Origin: Treponema sp.
GTDB lineage: Bacteria > Spirochaetota > Spirochaetia > Treponematales > Treponemataceae
NCBI GenBank assembly: GCA_017551545.1
Contig: JAFZLJ010000055.1
Location: 35 to 64,034 of the forward strand
Direction of reading: 5' to 3'
DNA length: 64,000 nt
Positions 13,036 through 53,841 of the stretch are shown one piece after another. Every line of letters starts with the position of its first letter. Position 1 is the stretch's first letter. The notes beneath the pieces are model-generated. The model saw nothing but the letters and a program-made list of their open reading frames with translations, did not search any database and was not told the DNA's origin. A program made the translations under genes and the position numbers.

Positions 13036-14502
13036 ATGATGAAGAAATGTAAAATACTGATGATTTTTTTGATTGGTTTTGTTGCAGCATTTACATTCTG
13101 GAGCTGTGGAACAACCCCAGCACCTGAGCAGACAGAAGTTACTGAGCCAACAGAGATCCCTGAGCCAACAGAGGTTCCTGAGCTTGTCGAAGGGCAAACA
13201 GAAGAGGTGGCCCTTCAGGAACCACAGGATCCACCGAATATTGCATTTGCAAAGCAGCTTAAGGAATTGCTCGACAAGGGTGATGTAAAGGCTGCAATTG
13301 CTCTTTTTGACACTATTCCTCCTGAACTTAAGGATGATATTGAACTTAAGATTGTTCTTGCTTCACTTTATGTTTCTGATGCTGATTATGATATGGCTAT
13401 AAAGGTTGCAGATGAAGTTCTTGCAATTGACCCTGAAAATCTTGATGCACTTGAAATAAAAACATTTTGTGCAAAGGCAAAGGGCGATAGTACAACCTAT
13501 AAAGCTGCTGCAAAAGCAATTCTTGCTACAGATCCTTATAATGCACAGATAAATATCATGGAAGGCGACGAGCAGGCTCTTAATCATAAATGGAAGCTTG
13601 CACGCGATGCCTACAGTAAAGCACTTAAATCTGAACCGGATAACACAGATGCCCTTTACGGCTATGCAAAAATGACATATTACATGGATGACCTTAAGCT
13701 TGCAAAAGAAACATGTCAGACTATTCTTGATAAGGATCCGGAAAATGCACAAGCTCTTGCCCTTATGGGAAAGCTTGCTGCCGAAGATTTTAACTATGTT
13801 CGTGCAATAAAGCTTACACAGGATGCCCTTGTATACGACCCTGACAATTATGATTTTTATCTTGATATGGGAACATATTACCGCTATCAGGGAAAATACA
13901 GTGAATCTATAAAATGCTGGACTAAAGCAACAGAAATCATTCCTGATTATTTCTTAGCCTATGCTTATCTTGCAGGTATTTATGATGAACAGAATCAGTT
14001 TGAGTTAGCTTTACAGAATTACCGCATGGTTATTAAAACAAATCCTGATTATTATTATGCTTATGAATCTACTGCAATTCTTGAATATCACTTTGGAAAT
14101 TATAAATATGCGCGAGCTTTGTTTGACCAGGCATATTCATATAGTGACAGCTGGGCCTATAAGCTTATGAATATTGCTATGTACTTAAAAGAAGGCGACA
14201 AGAATACCGCAAAACAGGAAGCACAGGCTTTGATGAAAAAGCTTGATCGTGAATCAACAGAATACAATCTTGTTCGTTTTTATGTTGACACATACAGCAA
14301 AAATGCGGAAACTTCACTTGTAAATAAAATCAACAAAGAAGATAATAACAATAAAAAAGGAAAAATGTTGTTCTACATGGGACTTTTCTATGAAATCAAT
14401 GGTTCTATAGAAACTGCCCAGGAATATTATGCTAAGGTTACAGCGTTCCAGGCACCAATGTTCTTTGAATATAGAATAGCAGAATGGGGACTTGGTTTAT
14501 GA
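13036..14502 (+). CDS. TPR-repeat lipoprotein
   Basis: Lipobox-like FWSC, Pro/Glu/Thr linker, multiple TPR units (..A...Y...L...P.N..A). Confidence 0.88.
   Translation: MMKKCKILMIFLIGFVAAFTFWSCGTTPAPEQTEVTEPTEIPEPTEVPELVEGQTEEVALQEPQDPPNIAFAKQLKELLDKGDVKAAIALFDTIPPELKDDIELKIVLASLYVSDADYDMAIKVADEVLAIDPENLDALEIKTFCAKAKGDSTTYKAAAKAILATDPYNAQINIMEGDEQALNHKWKLARDAYSKALKSEPDNTDALYGYAKMTYYMDDLKLAKETCQTILDKDPENAQALALMGKLAAEDFNYVRAIKLTQDALVYDPDNYDFYLDMGTYYRYQGKYSESIKCWTKATEIIPDYFLAYAYLAGIYDEQNQFELALQNYRMVIKTNPDYYYAYESTAILEYHFGNYKYARALFDQAYSYSDSWAYKLMNIAMYLKEGDKNTAKQEAQALMKKLDRESTEYNLVRFYVDTYSKNAETSLVNKINKEDNNNKKGKMLFYMGLFYEINGSIETAQEYYAKVTAFQAPMFFEYRIAEWGLGL
13123..13194 (+). repeat. 4 x 18-bp coding tandem repeat ending in a REP family C copy
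   Basis: cctgagcagacagaagtt/actgagccaacagagatc/cctgagccaacagaggtt/cctgagcttgtcgaaggg = PEQTEV TEPTEI PEPTEV PELVEG. Confidence 0.88.
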
Positions 14503-15680
14503 GTCAGTTACAGAGGGTTCTTTCGCTTGGTGGAAGGACAATTACTTTAATTGGTACAGCACATGTTTCGGCCGAAAGTGTTGCAGAAGTTGAAAATGCT
14601 ATAAGAGAGCTTAAGCCCGACAGTGTTGCAATAGAACTTGATGAAAAACGTGCGGATTCAATCCGTAATAAAGATAAATACCGCGAACTTGATATTGTAA
14701 AGGTTTTGCGTCGTGGTGAAGGCTTTCTTCTTCTTGCAAACCTTGTACTTGCTTCTTTTCAGCGCAGAATGGGCCAGAATGTAGGCGTAAATCCTGGTGA
14801 TGAAATGCTTGCAGCAATGCGTGTAGCCGATGAATTAAATATTCCTACCGTTATGGCAGACCGCGCTATTCAAATTACACTTAAGCGTGCCTGGGCTAAA
14901 AATTCCTTCTGGGGAAAATGCAAGCTTTTGGCAACACTTCTTTCAAGTGCTTTTTCTAAAGAAGATATGAGCGCTCAGGACATTGAAAACATCAAGGAAA
15001 AGAATGAGATGGATTCAATGATGAACGAGCTTTCGGAATACATGCCTGTTGTAAAAGAAGTTCTTATTGATGAGCGAAACACTTATCTTGCCGATAAAAT
15101 CTGGAACAGCCCTGGAAATAAGGTTGTTGCAGTCCTTGGTGCAGGACATCTTGATGGTGTAGTAGAAAATCTTGAAAAAATAGCAGGCGGACAGAAAGTG
15201 AATATTGACGAAATTGATGTTGTTCCTCCAAAAACTGTTGCTGCAAAGATTATTCCTTGGATTATTCCTGTTTTGATTGTTGTATTATTTGTTCTAGGTT
15301 ATATTTTTGGTGGACGTGAAATCGCTAAAGAAATGATATTAACCTGGATTTTCTGGAATTCTGTATGTGCTGGGGTTGCAACTATAATAGGTGCTGGACA
15401 TCCGATAACAATACTTGCTGCTATTATAAGTGCGCCACTTACTTCTTTATGTCCGACTATTGGTTGTGGTTTTGTGACTGCAATAGTTCAGGCTATTGTG
15501 TGTAAACCCAAAATTCGGGATATTGAAACTCTGCAAGATGATGTAACATTTAGAGGATTCTATAAAAATCGAATTCTTCGAATTTTATTAATATTTATAT
15601 TATCATCTATTGGTAGTACAATTGGAACATTTATTGCTGGTGGAAAGATGGGTGGAATCGCAGCAGCGTCCAATGCATAG
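14499..15680 (+). CDS. TraB/PrgY (TraB/GumN family) protein with C-terminal TM helices
   Basis: LIGTAHVS..S, VAIELD..R, PG.EM..A, ADR.I.ITL.RAW, LIDERN, VLGAGHL.G; ATGA overlap with the TPR gene. Confidence 0.9.
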   Translation: MSQLQRVLSLGGRTITLIGTAHVSAESVAEVENAIRELKPDSVAIELDEKRADSIRNKDKYRELDIVKVLRRGEGFLLLANLVLASFQRRMGQNVGVNPGDEMLAAMRVADELNIPTVMADRAIQITLKRAWAKNSFWGKCKLLATLLSSAFSKEDMSAQDIENIKEKNEMDSMMNELSEYMPVVKEVLIDERNTYLADKIWNSPGNKVVAVLGAGHLDGVVENLEKIAGGQKVNIDEIDVVPPKTVAAKIIPWIIPVLIVVLFVLGYIFGGREIAKEMILTWIFWNSVCAGVATIIGAGHPITILAAIISAPLTSLCPTIGCGFVTAIVQAIVCKPKIRDIETLQDDVTFRGFYKNRILRILLIFILSSIGSTIGTFIAGGKMGGIAAASNA

Positions 15681-15777
15681 ATTCCCGTGTCAAGCACGGG
15701 AATGACAGAGATGTGGTCCCTGAGCCTGTCGAAGGGCCCCTTGTTTATTGTCATTGTCGGGCTTGACCCGACAATCT
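15679..15777. repeat. Mosaic REP cluster A(-)/C(+)/A(+)
   Basis: 15679-15707 family A, 15715-15737 GGTCCCTGAGCCTGTCGAAGGGC, 15749-15777 family A. Confidence 0.9.
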
Positions 15778-15874
15778 TTTCTTAGAAAACTCTTATCATA
15801 ACAAGTCGTTATATAACAATCCATATATAGATTTTTTCCCAAAATTTGCGAAAATATGTATATATGGATTGATT

Positions 15875-17338
15875 ATGAAAAGAAAACTACTTTGTGTCCT
15901 TGCGGCATTTTTTACAATCAATATTCTTGGTGCAGTAGAACTTGTTCCTACACAACAGCTTTTAGCTTCGTATCTGGAACAGGACACAGATCTTAAAAAT
16001 CTGGCACTTGAATTAAAAAAGGCAAAGCTTAATCAGCAGTCAACAGAAATTGATAAGGGTTTTACAATCAAGCTGTCTACCGGCGATATGACAATGACCC
16101 TTGGAGACAATAACTCCTTCAGCGTAAAGCCTGGCGTAAATGCAACAATTCCAGGCATGAACAATCTTGGATTAAATGTAAGCAGCCAGCTTAGTGTTGC
16201 AGACGGAAAGACAACTTTTGACAGTGCAAGCGCAACAGTTTCTGTAGACATCATTTCTTCGAACAAAGCAAACAGAGATATTTCATTATTAAAGTCAGAA
16301 CGCTCTGTGCTCGAAGCAGAACGAAACCTTACAGCAAAGGCTACAGACAAAGAAAAGTCTTTTTACAAAAGCCTTAGCAACCTTATGAACAGCATTTCAA
16401 GCATAGTTCAAAAGCAGAACACAATAATCGACGATTTTAATTCACTCGAAAAAATCAAGCTTCAGGGTTATGCTTCAACTTCGGCAACTTATATCAAGGC
16501 ACAGATGAAGCTTGAATCTTCTGAACGCGACCTTGAATCGGCAATTCATACACTTATAAGAGATTATAAGTTGTTCTATGCCAGCTGCGGCTACGAAATT
16601 GAAATCCCTGAAGATACAGACTTTAAAGAGCTTATTCCAGAAGATATTCCTGAAGTAGAAGCAGAAGATATATCTGAATACAAGGCAGAAAATTATACTC
16701 AGATAGAAAGCAATTTGTGGAATCAGACAATCAACCAGATGACACGTGATGCCAACACAAAGCTTACTTTATCTGCAAACGGCGGCTACACATACAGAAA
16801 CAACAACGGAAACGGTTCAAACACTGTAAGTGCAGGAGTAAGCGCCGGTTATGAAGGCTTGAGCCTAAGTGCAAACGTGAATGTGCCGATTGCGTCTGGA
16901 AGTAGTTCCGGTGCCGGTGGAGCAGGTGGAATGGGAGCAGGCAGTTCTGGTTCTTCCCCAACTGTTACATTGGGAATTACTTACACACCAACAACATCAA
17001 AGAAAAACAAGATTTCTGACCAGCTTACAGAAATTTCTATAGAGCAGGAACAGATGAAAATTGAATCTGCATGGTCTGCTTATGAAACAGCTGTGCTCGA
17101 AAAGCAGCTTAAGCTTGAAGATCTTGAATGGGACAAAGAAACAAATCAGAAAAATTACGAAATGTATACCGCTGTAGAAGAGCAGATGCTTGATTACTAC
17201 AAGAAGGGACTCATTTCGGAAAAAGATTATACATCTGCAGTAATCAACACGCTGCAGGCAAAGGTTAAAGGCCTTATAAATCGCATAGACTTTATTGTCT
17301 ATAATGATGAAGTAAAAGCAATGTTTGTGGAGAAATAA
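15875..17338 (+). CDS. TolC-like outer membrane efflux protein
   Basis: Signal peptide, alternating helical and beta segments, C-terminal YYKKGLIS..DY motif, first gene of an adaptor/ABC operon. Confidence 0.75.
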   Translation: MKRKLLCVLAAFFTINILGAVELVPTQQLLASYLEQDTDLKNLALELKKAKLNQQSTEIDKGFTIKLSTGDMTMTLGDNNSFSVKPGVNATIPGMNNLGLNVSSQLSVADGKTTFDSASATVSVDIISSNKANRDISLLKSERSVLEAERNLTAKATDKEKSFYKSLSNLMNSISSIVQKQNTIIDDFNSLEKIKLQGYASTSATYIKAQMKLESSERDLESAIHTLIRDYKLFYASCGYEIEIPEDTDFKELIPEDIPEVEAEDISEYKAENYTQIESNLWNQTINQMTRDANTKLTLSANGGYTYRNNNGNGSNTVSAGVSAGYEGLSLSANVNVPIASGSSSGAGGAGGMGAGSSGSSPTVTLGITYTPTTSKKNKISDQLTEISIEQEQMKIESAWSAYETAVLEKQLKLEDLEWDKETNQKNYEMYTAVEEQMLDYYKKGLISEKDYTSAVINTLQAKVKGLINRIDFIVYNDEVKAMFVEK

Positions 17339-17339
17339 T

Positions 17340-18479
17340 ATGGCAAAAAAAAATGGAAAGAAAATGAAGAAAAGCGTAAAAATCATCTTGATTCTTGCAA
17401 TTGTGGCTGTGGTTGTTGCTGGGGTTCTTATAGGACTCAGATTCTTCCTCCACAAGGATAAAAACCAGGTACAGATTTACACAGTAAACAAAGAAGTTTA
17501 CGAAAACGTAATTGAAATTTCCGGAACTGTTTCTGCAGCTCAGCAGCAGACCCTTAATGCATTGGGCGCCGGAACTGTTATGAAGATTTACGTCAAAGAA
17601 GGCGACACAGTTAAGAAGGGTGATATTCTAGTTCAGCTTGATGATTCTGAAGAAGTTTATAACCTTGAAAAGCACGACTATAATATGGCTACAACAAAGC
17701 TCAACGGTTCACCACGTGATTTAAGCCTTATGGAAACCCAGCGTGTTTCACTTGTGCAGAAAATTGCAGACCGCAAGGTAGTAGCTGCTTTTGATGGTGT
17801 AATTGTAGAGCTTAATGTTTCTGAAGGAAACTCTGTAAAGGCCGGTGATAAGATTGGTACACTTGTAAATCTTGATTACCTTACTGCAGAGGTTGAAATC
17901 CCGGAAACAGATGTTGCAAAGCTCCAGGTTGGACTTCCTGTAATTCTTGAATTCAATGCTTCTGACAAGCAGGGTAACGGCTATGTAACAGGCTGGCCTG
18001 CAATTGGTGAGCTTACAAACCGTGGTGCTTCTGTTGTTCGTGCACAAATCCGTATTGATGATTATCCAAAAGAAATACTTCCTAACTATTCGTTTACCGG
18101 AAAGATTCAGATTGAAGAGCCTGTAGAAACAATTACAGTTGAACGCTATGCAATCGGGTATGATGATGACGGCCAGGCTTATGTAATTCTTGCACGTGGT
18201 AACCAGAAGATAAATGTAGAAGTTGAACAATATGGACGAAACTACGTAAAGGTTTTGAGTGGTCTTAGCGGCGGCGAAATACTTTTGCAGGCAAGCGAGA
18301 TTCCAAAGTCTGGTTCAGCTGCAAACAGAAACAGAAATCAGCAGGGCGGAATGCCTGACTTTGGCGGTAGTATGCCTAACTTTGGCGGAAGCTCTGGTGG
18401 TAGTGGTTCCGGCAGAAGTGGTGGAAGTTCCGGTGGTGGTGGAATGCCAAACTTTGGTGGCGGCGGTATGCCATTCTAA
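17340..18479 (+). CDS. MacA-like periplasmic adaptor (membrane fusion protein)
   Basis: N-terminal TM; lipoyl halves GTV.KIYVKEGDTVKKGDIL.QLD and FDGVI...NVSEG..V..G; IPETDV..L..G. Confidence 0.9.
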   Translation: MAKKNGKKMKKSVKIILILAIVAVVVAGVLIGLRFFLHKDKNQVQIYTVNKEVYENVIEISGTVSAAQQQTLNALGAGTVMKIYVKEGDTVKKGDILVQLDDSEEVYNLEKHDYNMATTKLNGSPRDLSLMETQRVSLVQKIADRKVVAAFDGVIVELNVSEGNSVKAGDKIGTLVNLDYLTAEVEIPETDVAKLQVGLPVILEFNASDKQGNGYVTGWPAIGELTNRGASVVRAQIRIDDYPKEILPNYSFTGKIQIEEPVETITVERYAIGYDDDGQAYVILARGNQKINVEVEQYGRNYVKVLSGLSGGEILLQASEIPKSGSAANRNRNQQGGMPDFGGSMPNFGGSSGGSGSGRSGGSSGGGGMPNFGGGGMPF

Positions 18480-18490
18480 CGAGGCGCGTC

Positions 18491-19168
18491 ATGGCTGAAA
18501 TTGTTGTACGACTTGAAAATGTAGTAAAAACATATTCCATGGGAGAAAGCGAAGTTCATGCATTGCGGGGCATTTCGTTCCAGATTGAGCAGGGGGAATT
18601 CCTTTCTATAATGGGTCCGTCTGGTTCTGGAAAATCTACCTGTATGAACATGATCGGGTGTCTGGACAGACCTACCTCTGGAATAGTTGAAATAAACGGA
18701 AAAGAAACTGCAAAGATGACAGAAAAAGAGCTTGCAGTGCTCAGAAATCAGACTGTAGGCTTTGTATTCCAGCAGTATCATCTTATTCCTTCGATGAACG
18801 TTCTGGAAAATGTAATGCTTCCTTTGAAATATGCGCATGTAGAAAAGAGCGAGCGTGTGGAACGTGCAGAAGAAGCACTTATAGCAGTAGGCCTTGGCGA
18901 CCGAATGAAGCACCGTCCTCATGAACTTTCTGGTGGACAAAAGCAGCGTGTTGCAATTGCCCGTGCCATGGTAACACAGCCAAAAATCCTTCTTGCCGAC
19001 GAACCAACCGGTGCGCTCGACTCAACAACAGGTAAGCAGGTAATGGAGCTTTTCAGACAAATCAATACCGAAAAGGGCACGACAATCATCATTGTAACAC
19101 ACGATCCAAGAATCGGTGAGTCTACAAAAAGATGTATTCGGATTCTTGATGGGCAGATTCAGGAGTAA
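18491..19168 (+). CDS. MacB/LolD-type ABC ATP-binding protein
   Basis: GPSGSGKST, GFVFQ, LSGGQKQRVAIARA, LADEPTGALD, VTHD. Confidence 0.95.
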   Translation: MAEIVVRLENVVKTYSMGESEVHALRGISFQIEQGEFLSIMGPSGSGKSTCMNMIGCLDRPTSGIVEINGKETAKMTEKELAVLRNQTVGFVFQQYHLIPSMNVLENVMLPLKYAHVEKSERVERAEEALIAVGLGDRMKHRPHELSGGQKQRVAIARAMVTQPKILLADEPTGALDSTTGKQVMELFRQINTEKGTTIIIVTHDPRIGESTKRCIRILDGQIQE

Positions 19169-19170
19169 TT

Positions 19171-20361: not shown

Positions 20362-20424
20362 AGATTGTCGGGTCAAGCCCGACAATGACACACTTTGTCA
20401 TTCCCCGGCTTGACCGGGGAATCT
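20362..20424. repeat. REP family A doublet between convergent genes
   Basis: 20362-20390 (GTCGG stem, minus) and 20396-20424 (CCCCG/CGGGG stem, plus). Confidence 0.9.
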
Positions 20425-20428
20425 CTTA

Positions 20429-22129: not shown

Positions 22130-22244
22130 TATTCTGTTGCTCCCATAAAACAATTATCTCTATATTATAGTATTTCATTATATCATATAATTATTGAATT
22201 TCCACTAAAAAAGTGCCATAATCGCAGAAAGCGAGGAATAAAAT

Positions 22245-23423: not shown

Positions 23424-26400
23424 ATGCACCATCGCGCCGTAAAAAACAGATTTTTGTTTTTAACTATTGTTCTCTTTTGCGCAAAGCTTTTTTGCGGCGA
23501 GATGGCAATTCCCCGTTCTGTTTATGTAATTTCTACAAAATATTTTGATTTTCTTTTTCCGCTCGAAAAGGAACAGACTGTAAGGTTTCTTGCCGAACAG
23601 GCAGATGATATTTATCTTAATGCAAAACAAACCTTTAACTGCGATTATGATATCAGAACTATAGTAGTTGTTTCTCCGGATTCAGATACCCTTTCTGTAA
23701 AATATACTGCTTCTCCGTATAACCGCATTGTAATTTTTGATGCCGTTGGACGACTTGAAGCAAGCTCGTATGCAAGCGGATTACTTGATTTATTTGCACA
23801 TGAAGTTGGAAGGGCAGTAAGTCAGTCAATCCGTTCTAAACCAATGGCGTTTCTTTCAAAGTATTTTTTAGGTGACTCTTTCCAGCCGGCAGGCCTTCTT
23901 AATGTACCGTACTCTTTCCTTGAAGGAGCAGTTTATGCAGAAGACGAAAAAAGCATGTCTGGCATTTTATATGACAACTGGAATCTTGAACTTTTAATGC
24001 AGGCTAAGCTTGAAAATAAATTTCCGTCGCTTCTGCAGGTTTCCGGCGCCTATGATATTTATCCGGTAAATAGAATTGACTATATTGCTGCCGCTTCTTT
24101 TTATGCATATATTCAGCAGTTGTGGGGAATAGAAAAATTCGGAGAATACTGGCAGGAATGCGGAAAGTTGAATTTCTTTAAGCTAGACAAAGGAATTTTT
24201 CGCAAGGTTTATGGAGAAGAAATTACAAAGGTCTGGCAGGATTTTATAGAAGCAATACCTGTTCCGGAAGTTTCGGCTCAGGAAGAAGAAAAGACAAAAC
24301 AGTTTTTTAAAACAGATTACGATTCAAATTACAAATATATTGTAAGCACAAATTATGGTCTTGTCTGGTATGATGAATTAAAGGAAGAGGTTGATATTTC
24401 CGGTTTTTATGATTATCAGAGTATTAAACAGCTGCTTTTTCTTGCAAATAATATCACCAATCTTACAGTTTCTCCCGACGGACGCTTTCTTGTAGTTTCG
24501 CATGTTCAGGGTGGTATACGCGAAAAATTTGAACATGACCTTGTGCGTATTTATGATTTAAAAGAACGAAAATTCCTTTCTGAAAAGTACGAAATGCGCG
24601 ACGGTTCAATTGTGCGGCTAGAAGACGGAAGATTTGCTGTTGCCGGAAACTATGTTGATGACGGTTATTCCTGCCTGCAGATTTATGAATCGCCTGTGCT
24701 TGATTCTTTGCTTGGGTTTGAATGCGATGTTTATAAAGGACTTGTTTATTCAAGAAAGTTTGAAAGCAATGTAATTCCTTATAGTCCTGTTGCTCTTGGA
24801 AAAAATCATTTTGCGTGTCTTTTGAACAGCAGCAACGAATGGTACATAATGCTTTCTGATATTACACCAGAACTTTCTGCAGGCGGACAGAATGATGAAG
24901 ATTTTTATACAATCTCTGTCGGCGGGAACAATGAAAGCTTTGCCGAAGTATTGAAAATCCGTAATTTGCGTTATGCCGATTATGTTGAAGTTTCAGGTAA
25001 AAAAAGCGACAGAGATAAAAACTTCTGCCTGTTATATGATTATGTTCTTCAAAATGAAACTTCGTTTGTTCGTACCGGCTGGCTTTTCTTTGATAAAAAT
25101 TCAATTCCGTTAAGGTCTCTTGTTTCCGGCTGTGACTATTATGGCGGTATGAATTGCGGGGCAATGTTTGACTGTAAGCTTTATTATTCTTCGCAGCGAT
25201 TTGATTATTCTGAATTAAAATATGTTTCGCTTAATGATATTCCGCTGGAAGAAGCAAAGATTTCGTATTCTGCAGGCCCTATGCCAACAACTGCAATTCC
25301 TATACCAACGACTGCAATTCCTGAGCCAACAACTGCGGTTCCTGAGCCTGTCGAAGGACCATATCAAGAAACCCTTGAACTAAAAAAATACTCTCCGTTC
25401 AAATATATGTACAAAGGTTCATTTTCTTTCTTCATGCCTGTGCGCGATATAACGCTTGATGATGGAATAAAACGGGAACCTGGTCTTGGTGCAATTTTTG
25501 AAACACAGTCCGATCCTTTTTCGAATAACGAGCTTCTTATTTCTGCAGCAAAAGGTTTTGTACCGCTTGATTTTGAACAGATTTTTAATGCAGATAAAAA
25601 GAAACTGGATGAGCTTAATGCGCAGAAAATTGAATTAAGCAAGGATGCAGCTTTTGCAATTTATTTTAAAAACACATCTACTCCTGCAGACATTGTTGCT
25701 TCCGGTGTGTTTAAGTTTAATGAATCGGGTGAATATACTCTTTCTGCTTTCAGCGATATTGTGTTCAGTCTTCCGCTTGCCATGACATTCAGACGGCTTA
25801 CTTTTGACGTATCGCTTGCTTTTAATGCTTCTACAACATATTGGGATGTTACACAGACAGAGCGTTTCCCGAATCTTACAGACTGGCCTTCGCTTTCAAA
25901 ATCATACAGACAATGGCAGAGCACTGCAGGCCTGCTGTATTCAAATATTCATCAGTATGGAATCTCTCCGTTGAAGAAAGTTGGTATAGCAGCCGGAGTA
26001 AAATTAATTTCTTCGTGGGAATGGGGTAATTGGAATCCTTATCAGATAAACGCTGGAATATACGGCACAGGTGAAATTCCATTTTTAATGCCGGTACAGA
26101 ATTATAAAAATATCATTTTATGTCTGCCAACTACAGTTCACGCAGAATTGTTTTATACAAACGGAAAAGCCGTAGATGCTTATGCACAGCTTATGCTTTC
26201 GGGAATGGAAATTCAAAACGGTTTCTGGCGATTGTATTTTCCGCGGGCAGGCCTTTATTTAGGTTACGATATAGCTCTTGAATACGACACTGCAACAGTA
26301 CGCCTGCCGGACCTTCGCCACCTGGAACGGTTTTATGATGTATTTGCTCACTGCACTTTAAATGACAGCGTTTATGTAAAATTAGATTTTGGGTTGACCC

Positions 26401-29885: not shown

Positions 29886-29890
29886 AATGA

Positions 29891-29912
29891 CCCTTCGACA
29901 GGCTCAGGGCCC
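29891..29912. repeat. REP family C copy between the permease and gntR
   Basis: CCCTTCGACAGGCTCAGGGCCC. Confidence 0.85.
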
Positions 29913-34584: not shown

Positions 34585-34597
34585 AATTCCTCTATTG

Positions 34598-34619
34598 CCC
34601 TTCGACAAGCTCAGGGACC
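34598..34619. repeat. REP family C copy between ptsI and der
   Basis: CCCTTCGACAAGCTCAGGGACC. Confidence 0.85.
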
Positions 34620-40027: not shown

Positions 40028-40151
40028 GGGGCCCCTGAGCTTGTCGAAGGGCCCTATAAACACACGTCATTGCGAGCGAAGCGTGGCAATCCAGTTATTA
40101 AAATGCATTCTAATAACTGGATTGCCACGTCGTTTCACTCCTCGCAATGAC
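40028..40151. repeat. REP family C (40028-40054) plus an 86-bp family B doublet (40066-40151)
   Basis: GGGGCCCCTGAGCTTGTCGAAGGGCCC; the doublet is a near reverse complement of 37361-37446, including the spacer. Confidence 0.92.
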
Positions 40152-42163: not shown

Positions 42164-42966
42164 AGCGCAACCCCCGCGGTCCCTGAGCTTGTCGAAGGGG
42201 TCGAAGGGCCCTCAGTATAAGCATACGCATTATGAAAATGAATACTCTCTTCATTCTCTGCTTCTACGCTGAACCATTTAAAATTCTTTTTTGCCAGGGC
42301 TGTATAAACTTCACGCACAACATCTTCAACAAAACGAGGATTGTCATAGGCATGTTCTGTTACATATTTTTCATCCTGACGCTTGAGCAATGAGTAGAGT
42401 GGCGAAGAAGCGCAATTTTCAATCAATTCAATAATATCTTCAATCCAGAAAAATTCAGAATAAAACAGCTTTACCTTTACAGTTCCACGCTGATTATGAG
42501 CACCGTATTCACTGATTGCCTTTGAACAAGGACACAAGGTTGTAACTGGAACTTCTATAGTAATGTAAAACTTTCGTTCATCTGCGCTTACAGTTCCTTC
42601 AAAAGAACAGTTATATTCCATAATTCCCGAAGCCTGCGAAACCGGAGCAGCTTTTTCAATAAAATAAGGAAAGCTTACAGTTCCAAAGGCCTGCTCGGCA
42701 TCAAGCTTTTTGCGCATTTCTTCAAGCATATCAAGGAAATGCTGCATCGTAACATCCTGATGATATTTATGGAACACTTCAATAAAGCGCGACATATGAG
42801 TTCCCTTAAAATTGTGAGGAAGGTTTACAAAAAGATCTACTGTTGCAGTTGTCTGCTGCTGCTTGTGATTTTTGTCGAGGACAGTTACCGGGTATCGAAC
42901 GCCCTTTACGCCAACTTTTTGAAGCGGAATCTTACGTGTGTCTGTTTCGTTTTGAATGTCGCGCAT
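42160..42966 (-). CDS. folE2: GTP cyclohydrolase IB
   Basis: D.QNE.D.R.IP.QKVG, KGTHMSRF, TLCPCSK.IS.YGAHNQR, LKR.DEK, NPRFVED.VR, ESIH.HNAYA. Confidence 0.95.
   Translation of the reverse strand: MRDIQNETDTRKIPLQKVGVKGVRYPVTVLDKNHKQQQTTATVDLFVNLPHNFKGTHMSRFIEVFHKYHQDVTMQHFLDMLEEMRKKLDAEQAFGTVSFPYFIEKAAPVSQASGIMEYNCSFEGTVSADERKFYITIEVPVTTLCPCSKAISEYGAHNQRGTVKVKLFYSEFFWIEDIIELIENCASSPLYSLLKRQDEKYVTEHAYDNPRFVEDVVREVYTALAKKNFKWFSVEAENEESIHFHNAYAYTEGPSTPSTSSGTAGVAL
42178..42211. repeat. REP family C copy with a 9-bp duplication, translated as the FolE2 C-terminal tail
   Basis: GGTCCCTGAGCTTGTCGAAGGG-GTCGAAGGG-CCC; the minus strand reads GPSTPSTSSGT. Confidence 0.85.
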
Positions 42967-44262: not shown

Positions 44263-44272
44263 ATACTTTTCT

Positions 44273-44315
44273 ATTACCTAAAAATTAGTATATCTGCATT
44301 TTTAGGTAATTGCAA
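44273..44315 (-). promoter_or_regulatory. Promoter of the AAA ATPase gene enclosed by a 13-bp inverted repeat
   Basis: ATTACCTAAAAAT-N12-ATTTTTAGGTAAT (44273-44310); minus-strand TTGCAA-N17-TATACT (44315-44287). Confidence 0.75.
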
Positions 44316-44356
44316 GATTTTTTTGAAACATACGTCTATGAGCGAAAAGTGGGAGT

Positions 44357-46883: not shown

Positions 46884-46945
46884 GTAAGGACTCCCTCTGA
46901 AATATTCCCCTTATTTTATCAGAAAAGAGTCTTTATTGCTAGTTT

Positions 46946-47935
46946 TTATTCATAAAGATAGCAGTCGTAACCGGAGCTTCGTAATTTGTCTGCGGTTGTG
47001 CCGGTGCCGTCATCTTTTACAAGGACAATGTAGTAGGTTGTGCCGCTGGCGCGTTTTTCTGAAATAATGTAGGCGTCAAAGCCTTTCTGTTTTACTTCTT
47101 CGCACAGGAGTTTTGCATTTGATTCTGTTTTGAAAAGGCCAAGCTGCCATTTGGAATCTTTGGTTGTTGTAGCTGCGGCTGTTGTTTTTGTTGCAGGAGC
47201 TACAGAAATATCTTCTTTAAAAGTTCCTGTTCCCTGTTCTGCAACACCGCTCTTTGGTACAAAGAACCAGAATGGTGTTGGAAGTAACTGAACATCGCCT
47301 TTTACAATTGCAGCTTCTGTTGAGTTTGGATAATTTTTGGTTATCTGTTCCGACCACGATTTGTCGCCGGTTACATACCAGAGTGTTAATAAAATTACAG
47401 GATGCACACTCTTCATTGACTGAACTTTGAGATAGGCTTTTAAAAGTTCAAGCGGCTCGTTTAAGTCGTCAACGTTTTCGGCTTTGCAGAGTGCGCTCCA
47501 CTGGGCATATAATTTTACATAAGATTGAATGTTTGCATCTTTTGAATTTCGCACTGCAGAGTTTAAGTAGCTGTCGGCAGTAGGCCAGTCTCCGCAGCAA
47601 AGGGCACAGCGCACTGCATCAATTACAAGCTGTTCATTTGTTTTTTGCGGCATGCCTTCTGCATCGCCTGCGGCAATTCCTGCAGCAGTTGCATAGCTTT
47701 TCTGGGCATCACCATATAAGGCCAGCTGCTCCTGAAGCGACGCTAAAAATACATAAGCAGCGCGTTTTTCTGAAGCAACTGTAAGGCTTTTGATTTGATT
47801 CTTTACATACGAAACTGATTCTTCGACTGTTGATTGTTTTACAGCCTGAGCTTTTATATCTTTTGCTTTTGGTTCTGCAAAAATGAGTGAGGTAAAAAGT
47901 GAAAATATTACAATTGCAAAAAGTTTTTTATTCAT
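46946..47935 (-). CDS. Exported TPR-like protein with C-terminal SPOR domain
   Basis: Signal peptide; WQLGLF....NA..L...V..KGF.A.I......G..YY.V.V. Confidence 0.8.
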   Translation of the reverse strand: MNKKLFAIVIFSLFTSLIFAEPKAKDIKAQAVKQSTVEESVSYVKNQIKSLTVASEKRAAYVFLASLQEQLALYGDAQKSYATAAGIAAGDAEGMPQKTNEQLVIDAVRCALCCGDWPTADSYLNSAVRNSKDANIQSYVKLYAQWSALCKAENVDDLNEPLELLKAYLKVQSMKSVHPVILLTLWYVTGDKSWSEQITKNYPNSTEAAIVKGDVQLLPTPFWFFVPKSGVAEQGTGTFKEDISVAPATKTTAAATTTKDSKWQLGLFKTESNAKLLCEEVKQKGFDAYIISEKRASGTTYYIVLVKDDGTGTTADKLRSSGYDCYLYE

Positions 47936-48317
47936 GAATTCTGTCTTCTATACTATTCACTTTATCGGTGGATTTTGATGAAGACTCAACAGGATTTTCT
48001 GATTTAGAAGGCGTGGCGGCAGATGCTTTTTTTGCAAGTTTTCGCTCTATTTTTTCCTGCTTTTTCTTTTCTTTAAGGCCAAGATTACGGGCATCGGCAA
48101 CTTCATTTTCGTGGGAAAGTCTTATGAACTTTGCAATAAGATAACACAAAAGTGAAAAAATGATTCCTGCAGCAAACGCAACAAAAATTACAACAACAAT
48201 AGACTTATCTGTATAGGTTTTAAAAAGCCACAAGGTACAGACATTCGAAAGATTCTTGCCAATAAAAAATGCAAGGAAAAGGATGATGAGTAAGATGACG
48301 ATTAATGCTGCGATCAT
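47928..48317 (-). CDS. LapA-like small membrane protein
   Basis: Two TM helices (F...N...V.LW.F), basic C-terminal tail; SD GGAG; the ORF-track extension is REP-derived. Confidence 0.7.
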   Translation of the reverse strand: MIAALIVILLIILFLAFFIGKNLSNVCTLWLFKTYTDKSIVVVIFVAFAAGIIFSLLCYLIAKFIRLSHENEVADARNLGLKEKKKQEKIERKLAKKASAATPSKSENPVESSSKSTDKVNSIEDRIHE

Positions 48318-48332
48318 AGTAAAACTCCATAC

Positions 48333-48416
48333 GTCATTGCGAGCGCAGCGTGGCAATCCACATATTAAAAGAAATTCTCAAATGTGGATTGCCACGCCCT
48401 TCGGGCTCGCAATGAC
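48333..48416. repeat. REP family B doublet with 26-bp spacer
   Basis: 48333-48359 and 48386-48416; spacer ACATATTAAAAGAAATTCTCAAATGT. Confidence 0.92.
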
Positions 48417-48423
48417 GGATTGT

Positions 48424-49812
48424 TTATATCAATTCTCCCTTAAAAGTATTACCATTAAGTTGAATTATTTTAACATTTACAAACGAACCTATCAACTTGC
48501 GGTCGGCTTTGAAGGCAACTTTTTCGTGCTGCTCTGTCTGGCCTAAAAGTTCATCGGCACTGTCGCGGCTTACTCCTTCTGCAAGGACAAGGGCTGTTGT
48601 TCCAACACGTTCGCTCATTCGTTCCTGTGTGTGTTCAAGCTGAAGGTCTATTACACGCTGAAGTCGCTCTTTGCGGACCTCTTCCGGAAGTTGTTCCATT
48701 TTTGCAGCAGGAGTTCCTTCTCGCGGATTATAATAATACATCATTGCGCTTTCGTATTTTACCTGCTTCATAAGGTCGAGCGTCTGCTGAACATCTTCTT
48801 CTGTTTCGCCAGGGAAGCCCATCATGATATCTGTCGTAAGAGAAACTTCAGGAATCTTTGCTTTGATTTTTGCAACAAGTTCAAGATACTGTTCACGTGT
48901 GTATCGGCGGTTCATTGCCTTTAAGACTGCTGTAGAACCGTTCTGCACCGGAAGATGAATATGGCGGCAGATAAGAGGTTCGGCGGCAATTACATCAATT
49001 ACATCATCTGTAAAATCTTTTGGATGCGAAGACATGAATCGAACCCAGCGGATTGTAGATTCTGTTTTACGAAGGTGGTTTGCAATGATACGCAAAAGCC
49101 CCGCAAAGTTTACAGTTACACCATCAAGCCCCAGACCCTGGTAGCTGTTTACATTCTGACCAATAAGTGTGATTTCACAAACTTTCAATTTCTTAAGGAT
49201 ATCAAGCTCTTCAAGAATCTGCTCAACAGGACGGCTGATTTCACGGCCACGAACATACGGAACAATACAGTAAGTACAAAAGTTATTGCAGCCATGCATG
49301 ATTGGAACAAATGTAGAAAATGCTCCAGGCTCCGCAGAAACAGGCGCAAAGTGATATGGCTCTGAATTATCAGGAACTGCAGGTGCGGCATGCTTTTCTT
49401 CGATTGAATCTATAATTTCGCCAAAGTGATGTTTTGCAAAAGTTCCAACAACAAAATCAACAAAAGGCCAGCGCTCTTTAAAAGTTGGGAGTAATCGTTC
49501 TGCCATACAGCCTGTAACTAAAACTGTAAGAGGTTTGGCACCGTCCTTTACATATTCAACTGCTTCTTCTAAAAACTTTGTCTTGGCATTACTTCTTTTT
49601 TCGCGTACAGCCTTGAGCCCGTTGATCCAGCCCAGTCGTCCTTCTATTCTGTCTTCTGCAGTTTTTCTGATTGAGCATGTATTTACAACAATTAAATCTG
49701 CTGTCTGAGCCGAATCTGATTTTGTCCAGCCGCGCGCAATCAAAAGCTGCTCCATAGAAGCAGACTCTGCAATATTCATTTCGCAGCCGTATGTTTCGAA
49801 AAAGTAAGTCAT
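48424..49812 (-). CDS. miaB: tRNA-2-methylthio-N6-dimethylallyladenosine synthase
   Basis: ETYGCEMN, NTCSIR..AE, TGCMAE, radical SAM CNNFCTYCIVPYVRGRE.SR, GQNVNSY, SHPKD, TRAM domain. Confidence 0.95.
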   Translation of the reverse strand: MTYFFETYGCEMNIAESASMEQLLIARGWTKSDSAQTADLIVVNTCSIRKTAEDRIEGRLGWINGLKAVREKRSNAKTKFLEEAVEYVKDGAKPLTVLVTGCMAERLLPTFKERWPFVDFVVGTFAKHHFGEIIDSIEEKHAAPAVPDNSEPYHFAPVSAEPGAFSTFVPIMHGCNNFCTYCIVPYVRGREISRPVEQILEELDILKKLKVCEITLIGQNVNSYQGLGLDGVTVNFAGLLRIIANHLRKTESTIRWVRFMSSHPKDFTDDVIDVIAAEPLICRHIHLPVQNGSTAVLKAMNRRYTREQYLELVAKIKAKIPEVSLTTDIMMGFPGETEEDVQQTLDLMKQVKYESAMMYYYNPREGTPAAKMEQLPEEVRKERLQRVIDLQLEHTQERMSERVGTTALVLAEGVSRDSADELLGQTEQHEKVAFKADRKLIGSFVNVKIIQLNGNTFKGELI

Positions 49813-49916
49813 ATAAGCTATTATACAGATAGGTAGATTTGACGACAAGATAGGCATTGTTCTGAATATAGAACTACCTTACTAAGTTTGATATACTTTA
49901 AAAGAGAGGAGAGCCG

Positions 49917-52025
49917 ATGAAAAAATTATTATTTTCTCTGTTTTTTTTGTTTTCAATTTTCTGTTTAAATGCAGGTGTAAAAATAACAACGGGTGAATAT
50001 GTTTGTGATGAAACAGATATAGAAAAAGGTGCTATACAAAAACTGACTGTTACACGCGAATACCGTTCTGCTACTCCTGTTGTCGGCAGCTTTGGAATTG
50101 GCTGGTCCACAAATCTTGATGAAAGAATTATCATATGTGTTTCTCCACCTTCAGAAGAACTATATGATATACTGGTTCGAATTGTTGATATGCGTCAAAG
50201 TATAGTTTCTCAATATGAAGAATCAATTAAAGAAAGTTATGAGGTGGATGATCCCTATAAGGTAGTTGAAGAATTAAAAGGCAGACAGAAAAGAGTTGTT
50301 TCTATTAAAAATGAACTTATAGGACTAAAAGACGAACTGCTGGGAATGCAAGGTTTTATGCCTGCCGGAAGCGAAGATGAACGATTGATTACAGAAAATA
50401 TAGAATCGTGTGATAAGGGAATAGAAGATGCAGATAAAAAGTTTGAAGAGCTTGATGAGTCTATAAAAGAAGCACAAGAAGTACTTGGAAAACTTGAGGG
50501 AGTAAAAAAACAATTAGATGAAGATACTAACAAGAAAATAAAAATGGAGGAAGAAATAACAATATCAAATATCAGAAAAGAGCGAAATAAAAAGGCTATG
50601 TTTAAAGGTATGGAGTCCTGGTATGAAGAGACAGGAATTGAAACAATTCAATATATAGATGACAAAGGATATCCTAACCTTATGTATGAAAGTAAGAAAT
50701 ACAAGGATGTCTGGGAGCCTGAGTCCGGAGAGTATCTTTGCTATTATAGAAACGGCAACTATTTTGTTGAAGATACCTCGGGTCAGACTAAGGTTTTTGA
50801 TTTTTATGGATTCCTTGTAAAGATAATAGATAGATATGGTAATCAGATAAACATTATTCGAGATGAGGATGAAAAGATAAGCAGCATAAAATCATCGTTT
50901 GGAGAAAGCTTTACGGTCGAATATGAAAACTCATTTATTAAATCAATTACAAATGACCGTGATCCTTCTGAAAAATATGTTTATTTTTATGATGGTGACA
51001 GAATGACAGGAGTTACAGATTCAGATGGAGATTATGTTTCTTATGGTTACAATGAGTTTGGACTTTTAGATTCCATGAACAAAAATGATGGAAGCTGTTA
51101 CAGGATTCTTTATGATGACAAGATTTTAAAAGGAAGTGTTGTTGCTACTGCACTTGTAAACGAAGATGGAAAAGCACAAAGGTTTGAATTCAATTTTAAA
51201 GATAGAATAACAACTTTTATAGACAGAGATGGTAACCGAACAACATATTACTACAATAAAAATCAAAAAACCATAAAAGAAGAATATGAGTATGCTTCTG
51301 AAGACTATGTGCCGCAAAACAATCAGACAGAAGATAGTAACACAAAAGGAATTCAGCAATATGATGATTTAGTTTATGATCAGGAAAATAATGTTCTGGA
51401 ATTAAAGAATAAAGGCAAAACTGTTTATAAATATACGTTTAATTCAAAAGGACAGGTAATTGCTTTTTATGATTCTACAGAAGGAAAAGGTGTTACACAT
51501 ACTTATGAATATGACTCTTTTGGAAACAGAATAAAAGATTCTACAAGCAAAAAAAATGCAATTGTTATGGAATATGATGCACGTAACAGACTTGTACGAG
51601 TAAAACAGAATAAGAAAGTGATTTTAAACATTGCTTATGAAAATAATGGAAAAATAACACGAAGAACTTATTCAAACGGGCTTGTAATTGAAATGGAACA
51701 AAATGGCCGCAAAGATATAATCCGCATGACTATAACAGATACTAAAACCGGTAAAAAGATTCAGACCGAAGTTGAATACAATAGGCATCACATTCCGCTA
51801 AATGTATATAAGGGCGATGGTACAACAAGAAAACTTGTAAAAACCTTTACCTACACAGATCAGGACTGGATGATTATGAGCGAAATTGACGGTGTTAAAA
51901 AGACTTATAAACCTTCAGAAAAAAAGCAGGCCGATTTTGAAGATTTGTGGGATATTCCTGATTTTAATGATTCAATTTACTTTGATTCAAAAGCAATGGA
52001 TGAACTTAAGGCCAGCTTGTTTTAG
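49917..52025 (+). CDS. Exported YD/RHS-repeat protein (DUF6531-like N-terminus), no toxin tip
   Basis: Signal peptide; GEYV..ETD..R.YRS...FG.GWS; repeated (Y/F).YD..G motifs; AT-rich. Confidence 0.78.
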   Translation: MKKLLFSLFFLFSIFCLNAGVKITTGEYVCDETDIEKGAIQKLTVTREYRSATPVVGSFGIGWSTNLDERIIICVSPPSEELYDILVRIVDMRQSIVSQYEESIKESYEVDDPYKVVEELKGRQKRVVSIKNELIGLKDELLGMQGFMPAGSEDERLITENIESCDKGIEDADKKFEELDESIKEAQEVLGKLEGVKKQLDEDTNKKIKMEEEITISNIRKERNKKAMFKGMESWYEETGIETIQYIDDKGYPNLMYESKKYKDVWEPESGEYLCYYRNGNYFVEDTSGQTKVFDFYGFLVKIIDRYGNQINIIRDEDEKISSIKSSFGESFTVEYENSFIKSITNDRDPSEKYVYFYDGDRMTGVTDSDGDYVSYGYNEFGLLDSMNKNDGSCYRILYDDKILKGSVVATALVNEDGKAQRFEFNFKDRITTFIDRDGNRTTYYYNKNQKTIKEEYEYASEDYVPQNNQTEDSNTKGIQQYDDLVYDQENNVLELKNKGKTVYKYTFNSKGQVIAFYDSTEGKGVTHTYEYDSFGNRIKDSTSKKNAIVMEYDARNRLVRVKQNKKVILNIAYENNGKITRRTYSNGLVIEMEQNGRKDIIRMTITDTKTGKKIQTEVEYNRHHIPLNVYKGDGTTRKLVKTFTYTDQDWMIMSEIDGVKKTYKPSEKKQADFEDLWDIPDFNDSIYFDSKAMDELKASLF

Positions 52026-52096
52026 TTTGAAGACTGATTGTATTTTTTTTCAAATCTGATTGTTTATAATTGTTTTTTACTATAATATATACTCCT

Positions 52097-53722
52097 ATGA
52101 GTAACGAAAATAACAACGAAAAGAGAGATCCATTGCTCTGTCATTGGGCAGATCAGATGGCTAGTCAGATTATCCGCGAAAAGGGTGATCTTGATTCTTA
52201 CACCTGTGCTTCAGGAATTACACCTTCCGGAACTGTTCATCTTGGAAACTTCCGCGAAATTATTACTGTTGATTTAGTAGTACGTGCCCTTCGCGACCGT
52301 GGTAAAAAGGTTCGCTTTATTTATTCATGGGACGACTACGATGTATTCCGCAAAGTTCCTGCAAATATGCCGGACCCAGAGGTTTTGGAAAAATATCTTA
52401 GATATCCGATTACAGAAGTACCAGATACAACTGGCCGCAATGAAAATTATGCACGTCATCACGAGGTAGATATTGAAACTCAGCTTCCACGCGTTGGAAT
52501 TGCTCCGGAGTTTTTGTACCAGGCAAGCCGTTATCGTGCAAACCGTTATGCAGAAGGAATGCGCAAGGCAATGCAGAACCGCGACGTTATTAAGGAATGC
52601 TTGAACGAATACCGCGATGACGCACACAAAATGAAGCCTGAGGACGTATATTGGCCTGTTTCTATTTTCTGCGGTAAGTGTAACAAAGATACAACAGAAA
52701 TTACAGACTACGACGGCGAATACGGAATTACCTATAAGTGTGAATGCGGCAACTGCAAAACTGCAGATATCCGCGTCTTCAAGGGTGCAAAGCTTGGCTG
52801 GCGTGTTGACTGGCCTATGCGTTGGAACGAAGAAAAAGTAGTATTCGAACCGGGTGGAAAGGATCATATCAGCCCGGGTGGTTCGTACGATACAGCAAAA
52901 TTGGTTTCTAAGAGAATCTACGGCTGGGACGCACCGGTAACAATGCGCTATGACTTTGTAAACTTAAAGGGAGTGCCTGGAAAGATGTCTTCTTCAAAAG
53001 GAAAGGTAATTGCTTTGCCGGACGCACTTGATGTTTACCAGGCAGAAGTACTCCGCTACCTTTTTGCAGGAACTCGTCCAAATACAGAATTTGCTATCAG
53101 CTTTGATATGGATGTTCTTAAGGTTTACGAAGACTACGACAAGACAGAACGTATTGTTTACGGAATAGATAAGGCAAAGAGCGATGATCACTTCAACAAA
53201 GAAAAGAGAATCTACATGCTCAGCCAGATTGACGGAAAGATTCCAGACGTAATGCCATACCAGGTAACAATCCGCCAGCTTACAACATTGCTCCAGATTT
53301 ACTCTGGCGACGTTGATGCTGTTATTAAGGCACTTGGTGACGTAAAGCCTGAACAGGAAGAACGCCTCCACCGCAGAATTGAATGTGCATGGTTCTGGGT
53401 AAAGCATTCGGCTCCAGACTGCGCACCTGATTTCTGTTTTGAACTCCGCAAGGATGGCAGCAAGGCAGACCTTTCAGGCGACATTCTTAAGGCTGTTCAG
53501 CGCGTTCGTGATGAAGTTGTTCCAAAGCTCGATACCTTCCAGATGGACAAGGAGTGCCAGCAGGCAATGTACGACATTGCAACAGAAATGGGACTTGAAT
53601 CAAAAGCCTTGTTCACAGCCCTTTACCAGGCACTCATTGCCAAAGAACAGGGACCACGCTTGGGAAGCTTCTTTAGGATTATTGGTAAAGAGAGATTACA
53701 GAAGATTTTAAGTGTGTATTAG
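52097..53722 (+). CDS. lysS: Lysyl-tRNA synthetase, class I
   Basis: HWAD, ASGITPSG.VHLGNFRE, WRVDWPMRW, GGKDH, KMSSSKG, GPRLG. Confidence 0.96.
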   Translation: MSNENNNEKRDPLLCHWADQMASQIIREKGDLDSYTCASGITPSGTVHLGNFREIITVDLVVRALRDRGKKVRFIYSWDDYDVFRKVPANMPDPEVLEKYLRYPITEVPDTTGRNENYARHHEVDIETQLPRVGIAPEFLYQASRYRANRYAEGMRKAMQNRDVIKECLNEYRDDAHKMKPEDVYWPVSIFCGKCNKDTTEITDYDGEYGITYKCECGNCKTADIRVFKGAKLGWRVDWPMRWNEEKVVFEPGGKDHISPGGSYDTAKLVSKRIYGWDAPVTMRYDFVNLKGVPGKMSSSKGKVIALPDALDVYQAEVLRYLFAGTRPNTEFAISFDMDVLKVYEDYDKTERIVYGIDKAKSDDHFNKEKRIYMLSQIDGKIPDVMPYQVTIRQLTTLLQIYSGDVDAVIKALGDVKPEQEERLHRRIECAWFWVKHSAPDCAPDFCFELRKDGSKADLSGDILKAVQRVRDEVVPKLDTFQMDKECQQAMYDIATEMGLESKALFTALYQALIAKEQGPRLGSFFRIIGKERLQKILSVY

Positions 53723-53726
53723 AAAG

Positions 53727-53841
53727 AGATTGTCGGGTCAAGCCCGACAATGACACAGACAGTCAAGACTGACAATGACACAGACAGTCAAGACTGACAA
53801 TGACACAAGTCTTGTCATTCCCGGGCTTGACCCGGGAATCT
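53727..53841. repeat. REP family A (-), two 25-bp REP-derived tandem units, REP family A (+)
   Basis: 53727-53755; (CAGACAGTCAAGACTGACAATGACA)x2 at 53756-53805; 53813-53841. Confidence 0.92.

Follow-up and report, generated by a model that had tools for sequence, protein, structure and literature searches.

The 64,000-nucleotide stretch of DNA analysed here (the window) belongs to contig JAFZLJ010000055.1 of the Treponema sp. assembly GCA_017551545.1, and it contains three short tandem arrays and one solitary partial repeat (a stub), each of which lies against an intact repetitive extragenic palindrome (REP), a small hairpin element (Table 1). Inspection of the sequence and Tandem Repeats Finder (TRF) confirmed the original prediction that all four are real and that in every case it is the 5′ end of the REP, carrying a conserved unpaired motif (the tag), that faces the repeats. 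Two of the arrays lie within genes. The 18-bp array occupies the linker that follows the lipobox of a TPR lipoprotein, where it encodes PEQTEV/TEPTEI/PEPTEV in frame, and the 21-bp array codes for PTTAIP-type units in a 1028-aa protein with a signal-like N-terminus. As predicted, the REP-adjacent units of both in-gene arrays share the sequence CCTGAGCCAACA (13159-13170 and 25320-25331); only 4 filler bases are common to the two occurrences, among ~20 arrays, and the sharing, considered as a sign of common origin, possibly reflects chance or selection for Pro-Thr. The third array lies between genes, and each of its 25-bp units consists of the 5′ end of a family A REP plus filler. It had been described (as 53756-53805) beside one family A REP, and the origin of its units from that element stands, but the array is located between a minus-strand family A REP and a plus-strand family B REP and is therefore on the 5′ side of both.

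The source assembly, denoted G000, is a metagenome-assembled genome of a rumen Treponema (3.01 Mb, 157 contigs, 38% G+C, completeness 89.5%); unprefixed coordinates are window positions and C-numbers (e.g. C144:34044) refer to its contigs. G000 is unusually rich in small hairpin repeats. Four REP families were defined, together comprising 729 copies and 0.65% of the DNA: family A (GTCATTGTCGGGCTTGACCCGACAATC, 123 copies), family B (GTCATTCCCGnGCTTGACnCGGGAATC, 94 copies), family C (GGTCCCTGAGCYTGTCGAAGGGCC, 235 copies with up to 3 mismatches allowed, 208 of them exact 17-nt cores, within the 24-nt hairpin element GGTYCCTGAGCYTGTCGAAGGGCC) and family D (GTCATTGCGAG...GCAATC, 277 copies). The window contains 7 copies of the family C core where 0.01 would be expected. 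No Rfam family matched the window at its gathering score.

The original prediction held that tandem arrays should be enriched next to REPs throughout the genome and should favour their 5′ side. TRF was run on the entire G000 assembly and returned 1418 merged loci of period ≥6, including 266 of period ≥15. Among the latter, 38 overlaps between arrays and REPs were observed; 300 random placements gave 5.2 on average and never more than 11. REPs were touched by 31 of the 266 arrays, and 29 of these extend from the 5′ end of the element, with only two extending solely from the 3′ end (binomial p=4.6e-7). The bias was present in all four families (C, 16 vs 1; A/B/D, 13 vs 1) and for singletons as well as dimers. 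Pairs of A/B/D elements with their 5′ ends facing (83) are as common as pairs with their 3′ ends facing (84), indicating that the bias is not a dimer artefact. A pattern search that did not depend on TRF (an 8-nt 5′ stub 8-16 nt before a REP, or the mirrored 3′ arrangement) gave 13 matches on the 5′ side and one on the 3′ side in G000, and 16 of 18 loci with tandem GGTYCCTG stubs terminate in an intact REP of the same orientation. Tandem arrays in this genome are thus strongly enriched at REPs, where they are polar with respect to the strand of the element, and both of the genome-wide expectations were borne out.

The stub search was extended to 61 genomes of the genus, G000 included, in which all reversed-pattern controls scored 0. 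For family C the 5′ pattern matched 14 times in G000, 9 times in G015 and once each in G005, G054, G063 and G068, two of the matches being whole REPs in tandem; the 3′ pattern matched once in G000 and four times in G068, where the cases are short 3′-arm reiterations. Outside G000 the family C counts are 13 (5′) and 4 (3′, all in G068). The 5′ pattern for A/B-type elements produced 65 matches in 13 genomes, 49 of them outside G000, compared with 5 chance-like matches in 5 genomes (4 outside G000) for a 3′ pattern that had deliberately been made laxer.

Table 1. REPs, tandem arrays and stubs in the window.
Feature	Position	Strand	Remarks
Family A REP	1232-1258	-	one 5′-side stub 23 nt away
Partial copy of family A REP 5′ end	1272-1282	-	TGTCATTGTCA on the minus strand; 23-nt-spaced stub
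18-bp tandem array, 3.4 copies	13123-13183	+	TRF, sequence; linker of TPR lipoprotein; runs into REP
Intact family C REP hairpin	13173-13196	+	GGTTCCTGAGCTTGTCGAAGGGCA; array terminus; encodes PELVEG
Family C REP	15715-15738	+	no array
21-bp tandem array, 3.1 copies	25283-25348	+	TRF, sequence; in frame in 1028-aa exported-looking protein
Intact family C REP	25337-25360	+	closes the 21-bp array; encodes PEPVEG
Family C REP	29889-29912	-	no array
Family C REP	34596-34619	-	no array
Family C REP	40030-40053	+	no array
Family C REP with recurrent 9-bp 3′-arm duplication	42178-42208	+	REP at 42178-42201; GTCGAAGGG twice at 42191-42208 (TRF), at the REP 3′ end; C-terminal tail of minus-strand FolE2-like open reading frame
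Family A REP, TGTC-tagged hairpin	53728-53754	-	5′ end toward the array
25-bp tandem array, 2.8 copies	53737-53807	n/a	TRF, sequence; 95% matches; intergenic
Family B REP	53814-53840	+	5′ end toward the same array

Comparison of the arrays revealed a common architecture. All units start in register with the 5′ end of the REP, including 2-3 conserved upstream bases. The stretch that a unit shares with family C is 5-14 nt long and ends anywhere from position 5 to position 14, and in A/B/D arrays the homology extends up to the whole 5′ arm plus loop; the 3′ arm never appears in an upstream unit. Each REP-derived part is followed by a locus-specific filler of 1-12 nt. Family C arrays have periods of 18, 19, 21 or 22 bp, apart from one in which a whole REP is repeated at 39 bp, and the periods of A/B/D arrays range from 19 to 36 bp. 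Of the 18 arrays that have at least two upstream units, 11 become less REP-like with distance, 7 are tied and none shows the opposite trend, as the predicted decay of the units implies. The original prediction had also invoked a single site-specific nick within the hairpin; this is unlikely, given that the points at which homology between unit and REP ends are scattered, reaching as far as the end of the loop in families A and B.

The four families share a one-sided design. Families A, B and D have an unpaired TGTC/CGTC motif at the 5′ end: in family A a T occupies position -1 in 96% of 103 copies and is followed by GTC, in family B the same T is present in 91% of 67 copies, and the family D consensus over 304 sites is CGTCATTGCGAG. 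As DNA, the A and B consensus sequences fold into a 9-bp stem beginning with ATT and closed by a 5-nt loop; the family D fold is weak (-3.5 kcal/mol) with an interrupted stem. Family C folds into a 7-bp stem (8 with an extension) with a 10-11-nt loop, and its unpaired conserved bases are found on the 5′ side only (Y at -3, 92%; G at -2, 96%). At the 3′ end many D copies read AATCCA, and A/B copies read AATC, then T and a T-rich run. This run resembles an intrinsic terminator (T at 50-86% over the next 6 bases; e.g. window 53814-53850). Three further features of the repeats were recorded. Family C elements are nested in one fixed orientation in the loop of A/B elements (C3:5791, C4:8042, C21:51419, C64:20430, C102:3964, C105:13028, C113:5221 and C118:11813), and such composites may be spreading as a unit or may reflect repeated targeting of the loop. 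A complex variant with three internal short duplications, GGTCCCTGAGCTTAGCTTGTCCTGAGCTTGTCGAAGGGAAGGGCC, is present at at least six loci (C4:22241, C36:11004, C45:24267, C76:757, C90:28156, C128:13380), so either rearranged REPs still spread or the rearrangement recurs. Finally, a further dispersed repeat, TAGTAAATAGGGGATAG, occupies ~23 sites in G000 (e.g. C25:29582, C85:3379), is often tandem with a 14-nt period and often adjoins G/C-rich hairpins.

Family C is often found within coding sequence. Its copies fall inside open reading frames (ORFs) of at least 200 aa in 121 of 235 cases (62 sense, 59 antisense), compared with 15/123 for family A, 12/94 for B, 25/277 for D and 790 of 1000 random sites. 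All but one of the reading frames of family C are open, and 'coding REPs' on this scale, resembling those of Rickettsia, were unexpected for Treponema. For all 12 TRF arrays inside such ORFs the period is divisible by 3, and intergenic periods include 19 and 22, indicating that a reading-frame filter acts on arrays within genes. The original prediction described the products as Pro/Thr linkers of exported proteins. This holds for the sense orientation, in which arrays read PEP(T/A/V), but 11 of 16 in-ORF cases are antisense and most arrays are located in inter-domain linkers of mostly cytoplasmic housekeeping proteins. Antisense arrays and stubs read GSGT(T/A)V, ADGAGT or AQGPQ and so encode Gly/Ser/Thr/Ala or Gln/Ala/Gly/Pro segments, Pro/Glu/Thr being specified in one orientation only. 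A general process is thus at work, of which the Pro/Thr linkers of exported proteins are one particular outcome. Host positions include the region between the mismatch-repair and dimerisation domains of MutL, the N-terminus of GrpE, the junction of a FeoA-FeoB fusion and the region between the PUA and methyltransferase domains of an RlmI-like protein; the other hosts are QueH, glutamate racemase, a pseudouridine synthase, a GH2 enzyme, an AddB-like nuclease, a DUF1538 membrane protein, a secreted-type nuclease and an amylase-family protein. Pfam domains were detected on both sides of the element in hosts including MutL, FeoAB, the RlmI-like methyltransferase and the GH2 enzyme.

Variation among strains was assessed using the relatives G077 (DNA identity 87-97% at the loci compared), G015 and G006, together with the independent metagenome runs X4, X5, X6 and X16. 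At C144:34044, G077 has a single bare REP where G000 carries four additional 18-bp units and a second, inverted REP, and at C114, against 3 units in G000, it has a single bare REP from a different loop subfamily. G077 contains one 21-bp unit fewer at C86:100219 and at the 21-bp array of the window, where G015 is without REP and array. Unit numbers are the same in G077 at C11 and C86:63838 and roughly the same at C150; the 18-bp array of the window has the same number in the close relative L047 and is absent from relatives at 71-78% identity. At C101 only the inverted partner REP is found in G077 and nothing in G015. The entire REP region at C117:17602, and the entire REP pair with its array at the site orthologous to 53737, are missing or replaced in G077. 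At FeoAB, a REP-like hairpin in G006 corresponds to a site with one further 21-bp unit in G000. Three loci (C144:34044, C114 and FeoAB) therefore showed a REP without an array, and none of the relatives compared, at loci chosen from G000, showed an array without a REP, which fits an order of events in which the REP precedes the array. In the two window genes neither REP nor array is present in more distant relatives, and L048 (78% identity) has, at the matching place in the lipoprotein linker, a full REP of opposite orientation with the loop variant CGAGAGCCTC and its own 21-nt 5′-side stub.

The species is present in many rumen metagenomes (at least 20 runs from 9 studies). The metagenome runs compared reproduced this variability, and the unit-number comparison that had been suggested yielded whole-unit differences at both in-gene arrays of the window. 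Contigs of X5 are missing one 18-nt unit at 13142 (1/4 runs), those of X5, X6 and X16, which derive from three studies, are missing one 21-nt unit at 25284/25290 (3/4 runs), and those of X4 match the window. Such array-unit changes represent 3 of the 12 indel rows listed, out of 14, in 13.8 kb of metagenome-contig comparison. The arrays are dynamic, with whole units being gained and lost after their formation. Near the lipoprotein-linker REP, just 3′ of it, X5 contigs have an extra 9 nt (TCCAGAGCC) at 13214, and the sequence GGCCCTTCAGGAACC at 13209-13223 resembles an inverted family C REP minus 9 nt of loop. The REPs themselves also vary at orthologous positions. In the RlmI-like gene (L027 vs L013, C117:3518-4831) G015 has a sense REP and G000 an antisense one; for the upstream REP in MutL (L080 vs L061, C150) G077 has GGTCCCT followed by an inverted REP and G000 a forward REP. 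These flipped elements look like inversions of loop and 3′ arm within the hairpin. At the FeoA-FeoB junction, G006 (L042) and G000 (L016, C86:18850-21210) have the same 13-nt loop, TGAGCCTGTCGAA, with the stem GGTGGTT/AACTACC in G006 instead of GGTCCCT/AGGGCC; the different yet complementary stem suggests compensatory change or conversion of resident copies.

Several known systems resemble the one described here. Similar to the GTAG REPs and REPINs that are mobilised by RAYT transposases, the elements of G000 combine a hairpin with a conserved unpaired tag, form inverted doublets and have spread within the genome. RAYTs acting on GTAG REPs recognise the hairpin together with the tag and cleave near the tag. 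The consensus flanks in G000 are instead TGTC/CGTC or YG, without GTAG, and a search for the Y1/RAYT transposase domain (PF01797) found it in 6 of 14 control genomes and not in G000; because this assembly is only 89.5% complete, absence of the gene is not proven.

A closer likeness is to the CGTC-tagged REP superfamily, which in the available text of its description has no associated transposase, includes some intragenic copies and is characterised by a stem of 8-9 bp, a loop of 4-5 nt and a short 3′ tail with consensus CCA, whole REPs or dimers being reiterated together with flanking DNA (Di Nocera et al. 2013, PMC3733652). Families A, B and D likewise have an unpaired TGTC/CGTC at one end, frequent inverted dimers, some intragenic copies and no linked transposase. 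The 9-bp stem starting with AT and the 5-nt loop are shared by families A and B only. The three families differ from the superfamily in that their dimers have tags inside and tags outside equally often (the 83 and 84 pairs above), and in the one-sided partial duplications, which the available part of PMC3733652 does not describe. Family C, by its stem, loop and tag, lies outside the definitions of the superfamily. It is instead reminiscent of the Rickettsia palindromic elements (RPE), small palindromic repeats that, as summarised in part in PMC3733652, occur in frame in genes for functional proteins: the 121 family C copies inside ORFs also leave the frame unbroken. Unlike RPE, which are described there as single or dimeric insertions, family C also nucleates a polar, strain-variable tandem array. 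PARCEL elements were considered and rejected as unrelated, being 75-nt protein-domain repeats in the portion of the account available (PMC2996958).

Replication errors at hairpin DNA constitute another point of comparison, and they produce short duplications or templated changes in yeast rad27/FEN1 mutants and at E. coli quasipalindromes, according to the sections available of PMC5677150 and PMC7202029. As with flap and slippage duplications, the units in G000 are tens of bases long and are later gained and lost by slippage; unlike these and quasipalindrome events, the G000 arrays are tied to a dispersed repeat family. To our knowledge, flap and quasipalindrome events have not been reported to copy one arm only on one consistent side. 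Intragenic REPs, whole-REP clusters with flanking DNA (in the text available of PMC3733652) and hairpin-linked replication errors in model organisms are already known; as far as literature searches showed, one-sided partial duplication beside REPs appears to be new here, no description of it having been found, which is not proof that none exists.

We propose that REP hairpins are hot spots of in-situ, one-sided tandem duplication, arising when a nascent strand misaligns and acquiring polarity from the tag or a protein bound to it, an explanation in which we place about equal measures of confidence and doubt. The duplicated segment would begin a few bases before the element, take in the 5′ arm and end at a variable point in the loop, excluding the 3′ arm. 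The first duplication would occur when the nascent strand misaligns at the hairpin during replication or repair synthesis. An asymmetry inherent in the element would fix the polarity, the conserved unpaired 5′ tag (YG at -3/-2 in family C; TGTC/CGTC in A/B/D) being the best candidate, possibly acting via a bound protein; consistent with this notion, polarity tracks the element's own strand, and a conserved unpaired 5′ motif is the asymmetric feature common to all families. Once two units are present, ordinary slipped-strand mispairing could add or remove whole units, so that copy number would come to differ between strains. Growth or renewal at the REP-proximal end would keep the adjacent units youngest. 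Within genes only in-frame events (18 or 21 bp) would survive, and only where insertions are tolerated, at N- or C-termini and in inter-domain linkers, the outcome being variable, REP-seeded, low-complexity linkers whose composition is set by orientation and frame. The data show the association with REPs, the polarity, the strain variation, the gradient with its growth or renewal next to the REP, and the coding context; the way in which the first duplication arises and becomes one-sided is a proposal.

A number of observations weigh against the proposal. The two strands are predicted to form hairpins of almost the same energy (C, -6.5 vs -6.2 kcal/mol; A, -9.6 vs -9.7 kcal/mol), and REP orientation is not significantly related to local GC skew in any family (Fisher p 0.12-0.68), a test of low power because the draft assembly is fragmented and the skew is low. 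In-ORF arrays and stubs lie in both orientations relative to the host gene (5 of the 16 in sense). The comparison of G000 with G077 is biased toward finding more units in G000, since the loci were picked for having arrays there. The differences in orientation, stem or loop subfamily among REPs at orthologous sites imply ongoing turnover by re-insertion or conversion, which could also leave stubs. The 3′ side is itself active: 20 of 235 family C copies have a stereotyped 3′-arm duplication of 9 bp (8 bp in one case), and several of these copies also have a 9-bp duplication of the 5′ arm that maintains a two-tier hairpin. The 9-bp doublet in folE2, rightly noted in the original prediction, was taken there as the lone exception and is instead one of many. 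The fillers pose a further difficulty. Duplication of the 5′ half plus flank had been predicted, and the 5′ part of this stands, but the sequence that precedes the first stub fails to match the filler in the young arrays C11, C101, C117 and C147, contrary to a simple 'flank plus 5′ arm' duplication. The origin of these four fillers is explained well by no model: a search of G000 for filler followed by the start of a REP gave no second locus, short fillers recur only at chance-like sites, and no copies were found within 1 kb. An origin by microhomology (short direct repeats) was considered at C144 and C117, where inspection by eye showed TGT or GT repeats flanking the 5′ part, but these predict 15-nt units and the observed units are 18 and 22 nt.

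Alternatively, the polarity may reflect a REP-specific nuclease or transposase that reads the hairpin and its 5′ tag on one strand and nicks or transfers near the tagged end. Tandem 5′ stubs would then remain as footprints of REP mobilisation when rounds of this reaction abort or are repeated, with resynthesis by strand displacement or joining of sister strands. Such an enzyme would account for a polarity that follows the strand of the element rather than gene orientation, GC skew or hairpin stability, and for the conserved unpaired motif at the array-forming end of each family; moreover, families A, B and D match a CGTC/TGTC-tagged superfamily for which the available text of PMC3733652 names no transposase. 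The breakpoints inside the REP are scattered rather than fixed, however, and G000, at its 89.5% completeness, yielded no PF01797 match and no candidate enzyme, and we consider this explanation rather unlikely. Iterative re-insertion, in which a resident copy is struck at its 5′ arm or loop, or immediately 3′ of these, by new REPs that overwrite its 3′ part and leave a stub that slippage amplifies, seems to us quite improbable. It is favoured by the nesting of family C in A/B loops at at least 8 loci in fixed orientation, by C27:8198-8257, where a complete REP is flanked by an outer 5′ stub and an outer 3′ stub, and by the divergence of orthologous REPs in orientation (the RlmI-like gene in G015, the upstream REP in MutL in G077), stem (FeoAB in G006) and loop subfamily (C114 in G077). 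Yet matching 3′ remnants are nearly absent (1 locus, compared with 13-16 with 5′ stubs), and filler plus stub occurs at no other REP locus, so there is no evident donor. In addition, the units of one array share locus-specific filler, with up to 4 identical 18-nt units, and in-situ amplification is needed anyway.

It is also conceivable that no REP-driven process exists, and that REPs prefer pre-existing repetitive linkers or that selection removes duplications on the 3′ side, for example because A/B elements serve as terminators. The T-rich run after A/B copies means that 3′ insertions could be selected against, and the orthologous linkers of relatives without a REP are Pro/Glu/Lys-rich and disordered-looking. 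Against this, no relative has an array without a REP, stubs match the REP exactly over as many as 14 nt outside coding DNA too, and family C has the same polarity within genes in both orientations, where the terminator argument is inapplicable; for family C this explanation is largely refuted, and overall it is very improbable. Duplication in situ at the hairpin is the account we prefer.

REPs are among the most abundant and least understood repeats of bacteria, and no mode of spread is known for the CGTC-tagged class. Any model of hairpin processing has to accommodate the reproducible and strongly one-sided pattern of mutation at the four REP families (29 vs 2 arrays in G000, and 49 vs 4 stub-pattern matches elsewhere in the genus), and counting 5′ and 3′ stubs provides a cheap genomic assay. 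The arrays also illustrate concretely how a selfish element introduces low-complexity segments, in frame and variable between strains, into MutL, GrpE, FeoB, surface lipoproteins and other proteins. A more far-reaching possibility, which we regard as unlikely, is that the stubs are footprints of a strand-specific enzymatic step at the tagged end, carried out by the missing mobilisation or processing machinery of the CGTC/TGTC REPs and family C. If so, REP-rich Treponema would offer a natural readout (stub side, breakpoints and unit length) for finding the enzyme, and a selfish hairpin would be continuously writing new linker sequence into housekeeping proteins.

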